A stretch of 20,000 nucleotides of DNA. Origin: an uncultured virus (IMG/VR IMGVR_UViG_3300007956_000001) (Duplodnaviria > Heunggongvirae > Uroviricota > Caudoviricetes). The stretch lies in IMG/VR virus record IMGVR_UViG_3300007956_000001, positions 56,183 through 76,182 of that record. One strand, written 5' to 3'. Of the stretch, positions 5,755-11,797 are shown in pieces. The translations under genes and the position numbers were made by a program. Within the stretch, counting starts at the first letter, position 1. The number at the start of each line of letters is the position of its first letter. The notes under the pieces are model-generated. The model was not told the DNA's origin. It did not search any database and saw only the letters and a list, made by a program, of their open reading frames with translations.

Positions 5755-6441
5755 ATGGCTATTTTTAATTGGTTTTCTATTCCAATATATGAAAAATCTC
5801 TTCTTCCACCAGAACAGGTAGAAGAAGAGATGTTGTTTTATATGAGAGAATATGATAGTAATGTATACTCTCTTGAAAAAAATAAACAAAGGAAAAATAT
5901 AACAGGTGATACTGACGGCAATGCTGATATTGCTAATTTAAGAGAATTTTCTTGGTTAGTTGAAGAAGTTTCAAGAGGAGCAACAGAATATTTGAAAGAG
6001 TTGAATGTCGATATGGATAATGTTGACTTATTTGTGCAAAAATCTTGGCCAGTTGTTTGCTCAACTGATGGTGGTAATGTGTCCTCACATAGACATCTTA
6101 ATTCCCATCTTAGTTGTGTATATTATATTCAAAAAGAATGCAGTAAAGAAGCAGGTGGGTCATTAAGATTTTGGATGCCAGATAATCATCCATTGAATAC
6201 TCTTCCTGTGCGATTTAAGGATGGTTGTAGGACAGATTTATCAACAAATTTTATTGATTATGATTTTTCTAAAAATATGTTGATTATATTTCCTTCAATG
6301 TTATCGCATGAAGTTACTAGGTATGTTTCCAACATACCTAGATACTCTGTTTCTTTTGATATTATCATTTGCAGTAAAATGAATACAGTTGAAAATGATG
6401 AGATGGTCTGTGCTAATCCATTTAGGTGGAAGAAAATTTAA
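5755..6441 (+). CDS. 2OG-Fe(II) oxygenase-like protein (TIGR02466-type)
   Basis: SW...HRHLNSHLSCVYY...IIFPSMLSHEV...RYSVSFD. Confidence 0.85.
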   Translation: MAIFNWFSIPIYEKSLLPPEQVEEEMLFYMREYDSNVYSLEKNKQRKNITGDTDGNADIANLREFSWLVEEVSRGATEYLKELNVDMDNVDLFVQKSWPVVCSTDGGNVSSHRHLNSHLSCVYYIQKECSKEAGGSLRFWMPDNHPLNTLPVRFKDGCRTDLSTNFIDYDFSKNMLIIFPSMLSHEVTRYVSNIPRYSVSFDIIICSKMNTVENDEMVCANPFRWKKI

Positions 6442-7600: not shown

Positions 7601-8200
7601 ATGAAAAAGGGTATGAAATTAATAAAGCATAATAATTTTATTTACGAATATGAGAATTTTGTTTCTTATGAAGATTGTGATCTTATTGTTGACTTAGTTG
7701 AGTCTTGTCCTGATATACTATTAAAATATAAATCTGAAAAATCTAAAACTAGATATAATCAAGCAATATCTTTATCTGGTCTTTCATGTGAATCATCACT
7801 AATTAAAGAAGCAGACCTATTAACTCATAAAATTATAAGTGAATGTAATACGAGATATTGTAATGATAATATATTACTTAAAAAGTTTTCATATGTTCTA
7901 GACTATGGTGAAGATTTTTCAGCATCTTATATTTACAGATATTATAATGAGGATGATTATTATGATTGGCACATTGATGAAAGTAAAAATGCATATTATG
8001 TGTTGTCTATAATAATTTACTTAAATGATAATTTTGAGGGTGGGTCAACATTATTTTTGACAGATAAACTTAAAGTAACTCCCAAAAAAGGAAGTGTTTT
8101 AGTATTTCCATGCGACCTTAGAACTATACACAAAGGAACAAAAATAACATCTGGAACAAAGAAAATAATTTGGACTTGCACTGAGAGGAGATTGTGCTAA
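7601..8200 (+). CDS. 2OG-Fe(II) oxygenase (prolyl-4-hydroxylase-like)
   Basis: WHID...IIYLND.FEGGST.F...GSVLVFP...IHKG...GTK. Confidence 0.88.
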   Translation: MKKGMKLIKHNNFIYEYENFVSYEDCDLIVDLVESCPDILLKYKSEKSKTRYNQAISLSGLSCESSLIKEADLLTHKIISECNTRYCNDNILLKKFSYVLDYGEDFSASYIYRYYNEDDYYDWHIDESKNAYYVLSIIIYLNDNFEGGSTLFLTDKLKVTPKKGSVLVFPCDLRTIHKGTKITSGTKKIIWTCTERRLC

Positions 8201-8208
8201 TATATAAA

Positions 8209-8268
8209 GTGTTCAAGAGGTTGCAAAGTCTGTTGTTCTGGACAGGGGTTCGATTCCCCTCACCTCCA
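8209..8268 (+). ncRNA. ssrA: Two-piece (permuted) tmRNA, acceptor piece
   Basis: GGAC-AGGGG-TTCGATT-CCCCT T arm, then CACCTCC-A acceptor strand. Upstream TGC-TAATAT extended -10 (8195-8203). 5' boundary approximate. Confidence 0.85.
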
Positions 8269-8270
8269 TT

Positions 8271-8352
8271 GGGTAGATGTCCGAGTGGTTAAAGGAGGAA
8301 GACTGTAAATCTTCTGGCTCTGCCTACGTTGGTTCAAATCCAACTCTGCCCA
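8271..8352 (+). tRNA. tRNA-Tyr(GTA), nested in the tmRNA intervening segment
   Basis: GGGTAGA/TCTGCCC; GAAGA-CTGTAAA-TCTTC; variable arm GGC-TCT-GCC; GTTGG-TTCAAAT-CCAAC. Confidence 0.95.
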
Positions 8353-8357
8353 CTCCT

Positions 8358-8545
8358 GGGGGTGCCATGGTTTCGACAGGGCAAAAAGGTTGTAATTGTT
8401 GACGGGACAAAACCATAGATGCAAAAACATCTGACTCCGCAGCGAATAATATCGTTGCATTCTCCCGCACTCGCACACTTGCGACTGCCTGAATGGGAGA
8501 TGGGGGATAAGTTATCCTTCTAATCCAATAACTCTTGGGGGTGTA
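8358..8545 (+). ncRNA. ssrA: Two-piece (permuted) tmRNA, coding piece
   Basis: GGGGGTG-CCATGGTTTCGAC 5' signature pairs with CACCTCC (G3:U70). Tag frame 8421-8492 reads AKTSDSAANNIVAFSRTRTLATA*. 3' boundary approximate. Confidence 0.88.
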
Positions 8546-8558
8546 ATGCCCCTATGTT

Positions 8559-8566
8559 TATAAATA
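8559..8566 (+). promoter_or_regulatory. T4-like late promoter TATAAATA
   Basis: Exact match upstream of ATG 8596. Confidence 0.7.
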
Positions 8567-8595
8567 AACTCAGGTAGTTATTATTTCATAAACCT

Positions 8596-8763
8596 ATGAA
8601 AAGTTCAGTAGTAAAGGGTGCTTCAAATATTGCACCATTGACGGCAGCAGTAGCAGTTGCATTTTTTAGTACTGTAATTGGATTTGGATTCTATCATGGA
8701 GCATTTCACATGAATGGAAATTCAACTCATTGCCACGCAGAAGGAGTTTGTCATAATCATTAA
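8596..8763 (+). CDS. 55-aa membrane protein with a His/Cys-rich tail, not in the ORF track
   Basis: MKSSVVKGASNIAPLTAAVAVAFFSTVIGFGFYHGAFHMNGNSTHCHAEGVCHNH. Confidence 0.7.
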   Translation: MKSSVVKGASNIAPLTAAVAVAFFSTVIGFGFYHGAFHMNGNSTHCHAEGVCHNH

Positions 8764-9985: not shown

Positions 9986-10004
9986 GTAAGAATTGATAGT
10001 AATT

Positions 10005-10658
10005 ATGGAACTTGGAGATTTAATTTATATACAAAAAAATAATCTTGATAGGGATTTTTGTGATAAACTTATAGAGAAATTTAATTCTAAGGGTAAAAAG
10101 AAACCTGGAGTTGTTGGCGGTGGATATATACCAGAAATTAAACAATCCATCGATTTGAACATAACTTTTACTGATGGGTTTGACTATGAAGATGGTGTAT
10201 TATGTGATTCTTTAGGTAAAGCTATTAAAAAATACACTAGCTTTGCTAAAGTAATATTAAATGGAGCATATGGTATCAATAAGGTAGAAGATACTGGATT
10301 TCAAATCCAAAGAACTGAACCTAATGAATTTTATACTTGGCATCATGATGCCAGTATGAAATTTAAGAGTAGAGATGGTGATAAAGTAATTATACAGAAA
10401 AGAATACTTACTTATGTTTGGTATTTAAATGATATTAAAGAAAACGGATATACTGAGTTTATTGATGGAACTAGAGTACAACCAGAAACGGGAACTTTAG
10501 TTATGTTTCCTGCGGATGAAACTTTTGTGCATAGGGGTTATCCACCAAAAAGTGAAGTAAAATATATTTGCACTGGTTGGGTTTGGCAAGACATTGCGTT
10601 CAACATGGAGTCCAATGGGGATGATCCTTCTCCTTCTAATGATAATGATTTAAATTAA
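10005..10658 (+). CDS. 2OG-Fe(II) oxygenase
   Basis: WHHD...LTYVWYLND...GYTEF...FPA..TFVHRG...KYICTGW. Confidence 0.9.
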   Translation: MELGDLIYIQKNNLDRDFCDKLIEKFNSKGKKKPGVVGGGYIPEIKQSIDLNITFTDGFDYEDGVLCDSLGKAIKKYTSFAKVILNGAYGINKVEDTGFQIQRTEPNEFYTWHHDASMKFKSRDGDKVIIQKRILTYVWYLNDIKENGYTEFIDGTRVQPETGTLVMFPADETFVHRGYPPKSEVKYICTGWVWQDIAFNMESNGDDPSPSNDNDLN

Positions 10659-10669
10659 TAGTAAGAATT

Positions 10670-11797
10670 ATGCAAAGTAAATTAAATGAACATGGTTATG
10701 AAATTATTCGTAATTTTATAACCAGTGAAAAAGCAGAAAAACTTGCACTCAATATTTCTGAACAAGTAAAGTCCAATATAGATGTTATGCGTGATGGGCA
10801 AGTTCCAGATGCAGATTCATTGTATAATTCAAAGTATGGATTAGAGTTACTTGTAAATAAAAATGGAGAGATTTCCTCTTTAATAAATGAGTCACTTCTT
10901 CCTACATATTGCTATTCAAGAATTTACAAAAATGGTTGTGAGTTGATAAAACATGTAGACAGACAGGAATGTGAAGTATCTTTAACTGTTCATCTTGATG
11001 GTGATGAGAAATGGGATTTTTATGTTGAAAATTATGAAAAAGAAGAAGTATGTATAACTCTTAATAAGGGAGATGCAATCATCTATCTTGGTGCAAAAGT
11101 ACCACATTGGAGAAATAAGTATATTGGTAAATCTTATACTCAATTATTTTTACATTATGTACGTTCCGATGGTGAATATGCAGATAGATATTTTGATAAT
11201 GCTAAGAGAAAAGAACAATATGACAATGTAGAGGATTATATTGTTTATGAACAAAATTTTTTAGACCATGATATTTGTGATGAACTAATTTCAGAATTTC
11301 ATGAGTCTGAGTGGCAAAATACTAGAATAAGTGGGGGAAGTGATTCTCAGGGTTCCGTTTTAGAAGATGTTAGAAACTGTAAATCGATTGAATTTTCTTA
11401 TTCAGATGTGATGGGAAAAAATTATGAAGCAAGAAATAAATTAGATAGCATTATTTTTAATAAAATTAGTGAAGCATATAGCAATTATGCAAGTACTGTT
11501 AAAAATTCACAAATTACATGTGAAGAAGATGAAGGATATACTTTATTGAAGTATGATGTTGGTGGAAAATATGTTCAACATACAGATCACTATCAGGGGA
11601 GACCTAGGTCTCTTACAATTATCATCAATTTAAATGATGATTATACTGGAGGTGAACTTGCCTTTCGTAATAGGACAAAAATTTACAATTTACAAAAAGG
11701 TGATATAATTATTTTCCCTTCAAATTTTATGTATCCTCATGAGATTATACCAGTAAAGTCTGGGACTAGATATGCTTTAATTACTTGGATGATTTAA
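10670..11797 (+). CDS. Tandem two-domain 2OG-Fe(II) oxygenase
   Basis: Domain 1 KHVD...PHWR; domain 2 QHTD...YPHEI...TRY. Confidence 0.88.
   Translation: MQSKLNEHGYEIIRNFITSEKAEKLALNISEQVKSNIDVMRDGQVPDADSLYNSKYGLELLVNKNGEISSLINESLLPTYCYSRIYKNGCELIKHVDRQECEVSLTVHLDGDEKWDFYVENYEKEEVCITLNKGDAIIYLGAKVPHWRNKYIGKSYTQLFLHYVRSDGEYADRYFDNAKRKEQYDNVEDYIVYEQNFLDHDICDELISEFHESEWQNTRISGGSDSQGSVLEDVRNCKSIEFSYSDVMGKNYEARNKLDSIIFNKISEAYSNYASTVKNSQITCEEDEGYTLLKYDVGGKYVQHTDHYQGRPRSLTIIINLNDDYTGGELAFRNRTKIYNLQKGDIIIFPSNFMYPHEIIPVKSGTRYALITWMI

Follow-up and report, generated by a model that had tools for sequence, protein, structure and literature searches.

The 20,000-nucleotide (nt) stretch analysed here, called the window throughout, forms the final part of a 76-kilobase (kb) IMG/VR virus record (IMGVR_UViG_3300007956_000001) whose completeness is estimated at 38%. 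It carries 10 transfer RNA (tRNA) genes, one transfer-messenger RNA (tmRNA) gene and several 2OG-Fe(II) oxygenase paralogues, and its nearest DNA matches are the Synechococcus myophages S-CAM1 and S-CAM3. The tmRNA gene is of the permuted, two-piece type, in which the acceptor 3' piece precedes the coding 5' piece on the same strand, an order on which ARAGORN and the alignment to three cultured-phage tmRNAs agree. The spacer between the two pieces is occupied by an intact tRNA-Tyr gene, and ARAGORN accordingly reported a permuted tmRNA (tmRNA*) at 8179-8583 with tRNA-Tyr(GTA) at 8271-8353 within it. The features of the locus are as follows.

8196..8204, + strand: candidate extended -10 element (TG-n-TAATAT), suggested by alignment to the S-CAM1/S-CAM3 sites
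8194..8268, + strand: tmRNA acceptor (3') piece, no encoded CCA (Rfam RF01851 alignment from 8194; ARAGORN tmRNA*; sequence)
8219-8240, + strand: acceptor-piece pairing strand, within 8194..8268
8244-8260, + strand: tmRNA T arm (read from the sequence)
8261-8267, + strand: tmRNA acceptor 3' strand CACCTCC (read from the sequence)
8268, + strand: tmRNA discriminator A (read from the sequence)
8269..8270, + strand: 2-nt leader TT, from the tmRNA 3' end to tRNA-Tyr (sequence; alignment to cultured-phage tmRNAs)
8271..8352, + strand: tRNA-Tyr(GTA), type II, long variable arm, no encoded CCA (ARAGORN; RF00005 58.4 bits; compensatory changes)
8353..8357, + strand: 5-nt trailer CTCCT, the counterpart of the entire spacer (CTCAT/TTCTT) in empty relatives (alignment A1)
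8358..8552, + strand: tmRNA coding (5') piece including the pseudoknot region (Rfam RF01851 to 8552)
8358-8364, + strand: tmRNA acceptor 5' strand GGGGGTG (read from the sequence)
8377-8398, + strand: coding-piece pairing strand, within 8358..8552
8421..8492, + strand: tag reading frame AKTSDSAANNIVAFSRTRTLATA followed by TGA, translation resuming at GCA, 8421 (ARAGORN: coding part 243-314, counted from the gene start at 8179)
8536..8554, + strand: terminal hairpin of the tmRNA model with T-rich tail, the likely terminator of the unit (terminator-like site, 8 pairs)

The tRNA gene at 8271-8352 thus lies between A8268 and G8358, within the intervening sequence of the permuted tmRNA. The two tmRNA pieces form an acceptor stem of 7 pairs, G3:U70 included, followed by a discriminator A, and the T loop is of the GTTCGAnTC type; additionally, TTGTTCTG (8233-8240) pairs with CAGGGCAA (8377-8384) in agreement with the Rfam consensus structure. 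The tag frame resumes at an alanine codon, closes with a stop codon and encodes a hydrophobic C-terminus. RF01851 (cyano_tmRNA) matches 8194-8552 with 112.3 bits (cut-off 70, E 4e-30), its alignment holding 87 nt in the window where the consensus has 10, and RF04321 (tmRNA_permuted) gives 80.6 bits (cut-off 47). When 8271-8352 was searched alone, RF00005 (tRNA) gave 58.4 bits (cut-off 29), the variable region containing 10 nt inserted relative to the model. Rfam groups tRNA and tmRNA in a single clan, which masks this inner match in the whole-window scan.

An earlier note, made on this DNA by reading the letters, had described a permuted phage tmRNA whose intervening segment is a complete tRNA-Tyr gene, and ARAGORN, RF01851 and RF00005 bear this out, the tmRNA being of the cyanobacterial type; the arrangement is confirmed as real. 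The positions it gave for the tmRNA halves, the TT, the tRNA-Tyr and the CTCCT all hold on the sequence, its 7-bp acceptor stem with G3:U70 and its helix 8233-8240/8377-8384 agree with the sequence and the Rfam consensus, and RF01851 matches, with the spacer in place, at the score given above. An extra helix suggested there between TTCAAGAG (8212-8219) and CTCTTGGG (8532-8539) is unsupported: the 8 pairs are possible, yet they come without compensation, fall outside the Rfam model and overlap the terminal hairpin. Among 23 loci of the S-CAM type, the 5' strand of this helix is invariant and three variant 3' strands only lose pairs, a count made with a search pattern that is off by one base for the commonest class.

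Cultured relatives provide the empty-site counterparts of this gene. The phage-type tmRNA is the same in S-CAM1, S-CAM3 and Sf-FS3, where its spacer measures only 5 nt (CTCAT or TTCTT) and the gene scores 128.2, 126.9 and 143.3 bits, respectively, with RF01851, and in alignment A1 the window differs from them by a single clean insertion of 84 nt (TT plus the tRNA) placed directly 3' of the discriminator. The S-CAM1 tmRNA is ~93% identical to that of the window over both halves and belongs to the same phage-type lineage. Unlike the window, the tmRNAs of S-CAM1, S-CAM3, Sf-FS3, S-SSM7, S-SSM6a and AG-345-P14 have short spacers without a tRNA, the last three having been scored as empty from match spans. 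The tRNA-Tyr at 8271-8352 is the sole tRNA-Tyr that ARAGORN finds in the 76-kb record, and in the full records of S-CAM1 (8 tRNAs) and S-CAM3 (10 tRNAs), both complete, it finds none. In Sf-FS3-like phages a tRNA-Thr abuts the 5' side of the tmRNA, which is there one member of a tRNA array, and in 16 loci of empty relatives a tRNA-Asn lies a short way downstream of the tmRNA; at none of the loci surveyed does a nested tRNA coexist with a free copy of itself.

Two scans of viral contigs were made, whose loci carry L numbers. The first, with a generic tmRNA 5' end, returned at least 119 loci, at least 50 of them permuted tmRNAs by ARAGORN, of which one (L057) has a tRNA-Asn inside. The second, with the phage-type tag motif, returned 110 loci; a permuted tmRNA was called at 100 of these, 78 with no tRNA inside, 14 with tRNA-Tyr(GTA) and 8 with tRNA-Asn(GTT), and the 10 loci lacking a call are mostly incomplete at their ends. 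Extraction by structural anchors was then applied to 114 sources (3 GenBank loci and the window in addition to the 110) and succeeded for 106, the other 8 being incomplete. Spacers measured 4-11 nt in 82 and 79-90 nt in 24 (16 Tyr, 8 Asn), so that the same order, for which the earlier note had suggested surveying cyanophage genomes, recurs in 24/106 loci with the window included. After dereplication 77 unique sequences were retained, comprising 59 empty, 10 Tyr and 8 Asn forms.

The tmRNAs of marine picocyanobacteria, the two-piece genes described by RF01851, share with the window the permuted order, the tRNA-like domain, G3:U70, the ANNIV...FSR core of the tag and the lack of an encoded CCA. 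In a host control using ANNIV-type tags in cellular genomes (at least 120 loci), ARAGORN found a tRNA inside 0/85 host-type permuted tmRNAs among the matches listed, whose spacers range from 5 to 98 nt and which likewise encode no CCA; empty phage spacers, in contrast, measure 4-11 nt. The phage tags also differ in being extended, with seven additional N-terminal residues (A-K/N-T-S-D-x-A) ahead of the host-like ANNIVAFSR core, at 8421-8441 in the window and in all phage-type loci. In one phage clade the tags have long tails (...REFARTxELVTA, 31-32 residues).

Contigs from other samples, designated by the X numbers of their sequencing runs, confirm that the arrangement exists elsewhere. X10, a 443-nt contig from an RNA library, runs unbroken over the counterpart of 8193-8432 and comes from a relative with another Tyr allele; X1 and X2, from another study, cover 8240-8343 with a backbone of the L127 type, and a third study contains one relative with an empty site. 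A further RNA-library contig from that study (run X6, 1195 nt) comes from an S-CAM-like relative in which 45 other letters replace the ~88-89-nt spacer (8269-8358), a third spacer state that is too short for a tRNA.

Both RNAs show signs of constraint. All 11 distinct nested forms match RF01851 (110.5-159 bits), with five empty sisters at 122-142 bits, and tags are intact in all nested forms called by ARAGORN. Seven versions of the acceptor stem, which differ by compensatory changes (e.g. GGGGATG/CATCTCC, GGGGGCG/CGCTTCC), are present among the 106 loci, with G3:U70 in 7/7, and it is this variety of pairs that is informative, full pairing having been imposed by the extraction; L057 independently shows the stem GGGGATG/CATCTCC. 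In the five Tyr-bearing alleles 98.1% of cells are paired, against 40-58% when the partners are slid by 1-3 columns, and seven pairs have changed on both sides, three in the anticodon stem of the tRNA, two in its variable arm and two in the helix that closes the tRNA-like domain of the tmRNA. The anticodon loop CTGTAAA is invariant among the Tyr alleles. The covariation among relatives that the earlier note had proposed looking for is therefore present in both tmRNA and tRNA (five Tyr alleles; 106-locus stems) and, judging from these alignments, each keeps its structure by compensatory change.

The distribution of the nested tRNA is patchy. In a FastTree tree of the backbone, built with the spacer left out, the nested forms are scattered. 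Pairwise identities, given as 3' piece / 5' piece and independent of that tree, place filled genes beside empty ones: L166 (Asn) and L136 (empty) agree at 75/75 and 208/215 positions, L201 (Tyr) and L142 (empty) at 73/75 and 212/215, L150 (Tyr) and L126 (empty) at 74/75 and 205/215, and the window (Tyr) and L164 (empty) at 71/75 and 203/213. The window and L127 have 89-nt spacers identical at 89/89 positions on backbones that agree at 45/75 and 164/207. Both main Tyr alleles are found in the S-CAM-like and the Sf-FS3-like backbone clades alike, and the two Asn families represent separate acquisitions, since their acceptor stems are unrelated and their flanks differ. Anatomy, conservation, recurrence and this pattern of presence and absence are matters of observation.

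Such filled and empty sisters, together with an identical Tyr cassette in divergent backbones, point to a slot with exchangeable cargo, and the occurrence of the Tyr alleles in both clades would fit a transfer of cassettes via conserved arms, the T arm and acceptor on the upstream side and GGGGGTGCCATGGTTT on the downstream side. The earlier note had missed this point; with empty sisters and an 84-nt insertion, the nested tRNA is better described as optional cargo than as a fixed part of the gene. More tentatively, and as a possibility that we rate somewhat short of likely, the spacer of cyanophage two-piece tmRNAs may be a true exchangeable tRNA slot, the nearly invariant tRNA-like arms of which would act as homology arms for horizontal spread of cassettes among diverged phage lineages in co-infection. 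Under the slot reading, expression of the cargo would be tied to the promoter and terminator of the tmRNA, because the 2-nt and 5-nt flanks leave it no space for signals, and if true the locus would be a small mobile-cassette system based on the RNA gene's own processing sites. Both cargo tRNAs, Tyr and Asn, read NAY codons with G34 anticodons, and bacterial G34 tRNAs for NAY codons carry queuosine; a link of the cargo to codon usage or to queuosine modification is conceivable.

The clade with REFAR-type tags has longer empty spacers, seen in L136, L137 and L160 (CCTTTGCAA, CTTTTGCAA, CCTTGCAA), and CCTT+TGC, found at the beginning of L166's filled Asn spacer, is present in these too. This shared motif may be the scar of a tRNA loss. 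A simple deletion leading from the filled L166 to the empty L136 was tried as an account of it and fails, as the 3' ends differ.

A permuted tmRNA junction consists of a tRNA-like 3' end, a short spacer and a tRNA-like 5' end, and a tRNA placed in this slot therefore makes two ordinary tRNA-tRNA junctions. The flanks of the nested tRNA, 2 nt and 5 nt, compare with gaps of 2-3 nt at the window's own tRNA-tRNA junctions (Val/Pro, Asn/Leu). We infer co-transcription, the cleavage sites, CCA addition, aminoacylation and the route of recombination along the following lines. A single transcript would run from a promoter at ~8175-8204 to the terminal hairpin at 8536-8554; the 5' ends at G8271 and G8358 would be made by host RNase P, and the 3' ends at A8268 and A8352 by RNase Z or exonuclease trimming. 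CCA would have to be added after trimming, because neither the tmRNA nor the tRNA-Tyr encodes it (as in the host tmRNAs), and a CCA-adding enzyme would complete both 3' ends; cyanobacteria possess RNase Z as well as a CCA-adding enzyme. The expected products are an acceptor piece of ~60 nt, the tRNA-Tyr and a coding piece of ~195 nt, and the two tmRNA pieces would anneal through 8219-8240 with 8377-8398 and through the acceptor stem, and would then act together with SmpB and AlaRS of the host. The tRNA-Tyr and tRNA-Asn cassettes would be gained, lost and moved among tmRNA backbones, probably by recombination via the highly conserved tRNA-like arms. According to a review, RNase P and tRNase Z 'probably' cleave permuted tmRNA precursors (PMC3985003).

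The signals around the gene are in part consistent with such a unit. S-CAM1 and S-CAM3 have a strong promoter-like site (TTGACA-17-TACTAT/TAATAT with TG, 10/12 matches) ending ~10 nt before the tmRNA, and the site aligned to it in the window keeps TG-TAATAT with a degenerate -35. The last tmRNA hairpin is flagged as terminator-like in the window and S-CAM1, not in S-CAM3. The RNA runs over 8150-8620 are all Logan contigs, with best word shares of 0.27 and 0.25 and none of at least half, and X10 is compatible with an unprocessed precursor, DNA being possible in RNA libraries. Trans-translation, alanylation, and the charging and decoding by tRNA-Tyr in the window phage are predictions from the sequence.

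Considering this evidence, we put at roughly 0.75 the probability that both genes of this cyanomyophage locus are functional, the two-piece tmRNA as well as the tRNA-Tyr that its spacer carries as optional cargo. Several points weigh against it. The promoter scan of the window passed over the aligned site, a search for SmpB (PF01668) in the 76-kb record, which is 38% complete, found none, and the RNA runs are assembled contigs of relatives from which RNA ends are not readable. The nested form is absent among the cultured phages of the collection searched. The covariation sample is small with its five Tyr alleles, extraction demanded 7/7 acceptor pairing, the backbone tree was read without support values, and the scans are not exhaustive, as L057 carries the tag motif and is yet missing from the second scan.

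If the insertion had broken the tmRNA, its halves would be a decaying pseudogene and only the tRNA-Tyr would function, which might be read from the window's RF01851 score of 112.3 bits, lower than the 128.2 and 126.9 bits of S-CAM1 and S-CAM3. That drop, however, is the cost which the model charges for an 87-nt insertion, the distinct nested forms pass the same model in 11/11 cases (110.5-159 bits), and their backbones, several and diverged, keep the tags intact and the acceptor stems paired, compensatory variants among them; besides, a tRNA at a tRNA-like junction need disturb neither flank, and we consider decay very improbable. That the contig is a chimera joined at tRNA-like repeats would be a natural suspicion for a metagenomic virus record, T-arm sequences being repetitive, but it is scarcely credible when the same order is found on 23 other contigs, with 4 Tyr alleles and 2 Asn families, and when contigs from other runs, X10 (8193-8432) and X1 and X2 (8240-8343), bridge the junctions.

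The position of the tRNA exactly at both cleavage sites might also suggest that it is mainly a processing handle, a case of tRNA punctuation that separates the tmRNA pieces, and not a decoding tRNA. Nevertheless 82/106 relatives manage with a spacer of 4-11 nt, and the invariant CTGTAAA loop with the compensating anticodon stem and variable arm indicates constraint beyond the acceptor/T domain seen by RNase P and RNase Z; as the tRNA is moreover the sole tRNA-Tyr of the record, and S-CAM1 and S-CAM3 have none, we find a mere handle quite doubtful. Another account reverses the direction of change, the nested state being ancestral and the empty genes being repeated deletions instead of sites without insertion; it bears on direction alone and leaves the mechanism unchanged. 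The longer empty spacers of the REFAR-tag clade (CCTTTGCAA, CCTTGCAA), with CCTT+TGC in common with the start of the filled L166 spacer, speak for it, yet no single simple deletion gives that scar, the 3' ends being different, empty forms dominate every clade, the outgroup-like host genes are without a tRNA among the matches listed, and Tyr together with two Asn genes, unrelated to each other and differently flanked, implies several gains. We therefore regard an ancestral nested state as unlikely and retain optional cargo in a working tmRNA gene as our reading.

The layout has a published precedent. A permuted tmRNA in GCA-2688965__sp002688965.2, whose intervening sequence contains an intact tRNA-Ala gene, has the same layout as the window, and the 2025 database paper that reports it terms the tRNA-Ala in the spacer "a unique feature" and lists 79 phage sequences (PMC11915505, as far as its text was available). 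That case, compared here by description only, is a single, nominally archaeal metagenome-assembled genome (MAG) with tRNA-Ala, whereas the present one concerns cyanomyophages, with tRNA-Tyr (Asn in relatives), 24/106 loci and a polymorphism of presence and absence; in the one supplement text of that paper that was available, phage and MAG names gave 0 matches. Two-piece tmRNAs in phage isolates have also been published: 53, of which 50 are marine or aquatic, with a cyanophage branch in the tree, according to the accessible part of PMC9004378. The OM43 phage Melnitz of the same paper likewise encodes a permuted ssrA, which is of the alphaproteobacterial type and accompanied by a glutamine riboswitch, and a nested tRNA is not mentioned in that part. 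In the available part of a 2014 tmRNA survey, phage entries are limited to mycobacteriophages and Bacillus phage G (PMC4131195).

Our full-text literature search, which covered neither subscription papers nor the tmRNA database, gave no account of tRNAs nested in cyanophage tmRNA. The earlier note knew of no described tRNA nested in a permuted tmRNA, a claim that the tRNA-Ala case (PMC11915505) contradicts, and phage two-piece tmRNAs are published too (PMC9004378); of its reading of mechanism and novelty, the anatomy stands, processing into three RNAs is a plausible mechanism compatible with all that was seen, the 2-nt and 5-nt flanks included, and the novelty was overstated. We regard the feature as a variant, so far hardly documented, of a gene type already known and not as a new kind of system. 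What is added here is its frequency in marine cyanomyophages (24/106), its absence from hosts (0/85 among the matches listed), two cargo identities with several independent acquisitions, and evidence for movement of the cassette between backbones.

In mitochondrial tRNA punctuation, tRNA-processing enzymes free flanking RNAs by cutting at the ends of tRNAs. The window differs in that its flanks are themselves tRNA-like ends recognised by RNase P and RNase Z, and the nested tRNA is for this reason not needed for cleavage, as the empty relatives also show. The first scan also returned non-cyanophage permuted tmRNAs (L020, L028, L011, L073 and others), with tags such as ANDSVYALAA, presumably of the alphaproteobacterial type; their spacers of 33-203 nt carry an encoded CCA at the start and, among the matches listed, never contain a tRNA. 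Many of these spacers open with CCAAAAG... and close with ...CTTTTGAT, which by eye resembles a long closing hairpin.

Some further observations concern the neighbourhood and the annotation of these genes. Four open reading frames (ORFs) for 2OG-Fe(II) oxygenases (PF13640/PF13759) are interspersed with the tRNA/tmRNA array of the window, at 5755-6441, 7601-8200, 9993-10658 and 10670-11797, and the end of the one at 7601-8200 overlaps the candidate -10 element of the tmRNA. In S-CAM1 a wcaG RNA motif (RF01761, 83.5 bits; L001 5607-5703) lies just upstream of a tRNA-Gly. Cyanophage tmRNA genes in GenBank are unannotated or lie under a coding sequence (CDS) for a 'hypothetical protein' (L001 3000-3276, L002 3000-3140, S-SSM7 GU071098.1 21006-21297), and such a CDS is a likely mis-annotation. 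The GGTTTCGAC box after the acceptor stem, usually conserved, varies in phage tmRNAs, with GGTTTAGAC, GGTTTTGAC and GGTCTCGAC and with CAAGG for CATGG in the 5' pieces of L127, L140, L155, L132 and L166. Because of this variation exact-pattern scans miss many phage tmRNAs, and a search using the box missed 68/110 loci. ARAGORN additionally makes spurious one-piece 'tmRNA' calls that span runs of tRNAs beside the true permuted gene (L003 2587-3004, L133 167-608), a hazard for automated annotation.

For annotation, the finding exposes a gap, since cyanophage tmRNAs are missing or mislabelled in GenBank and clan competition in Rfam-style pipelines conceals the inner tRNA. A feature once published as "unique" is now recurrent and polymorphic, present in about one fifth of marine cyanomyophage tmRNA genes, and the natural filled and empty pairs are ready-made controls. 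The permuted tmRNA junction behaves as an ordinary tRNA-tRNA junction, which lends natural genetic support to the long-assumed and little-tested maturation of two-piece tmRNA by RNase P and RNase Z. It also suggests one route by which phages gain tRNAs: S-CAM1 and S-CAM3 are without a tRNA-Tyr, and the window phage adds one at a place where expression and processing would come free.

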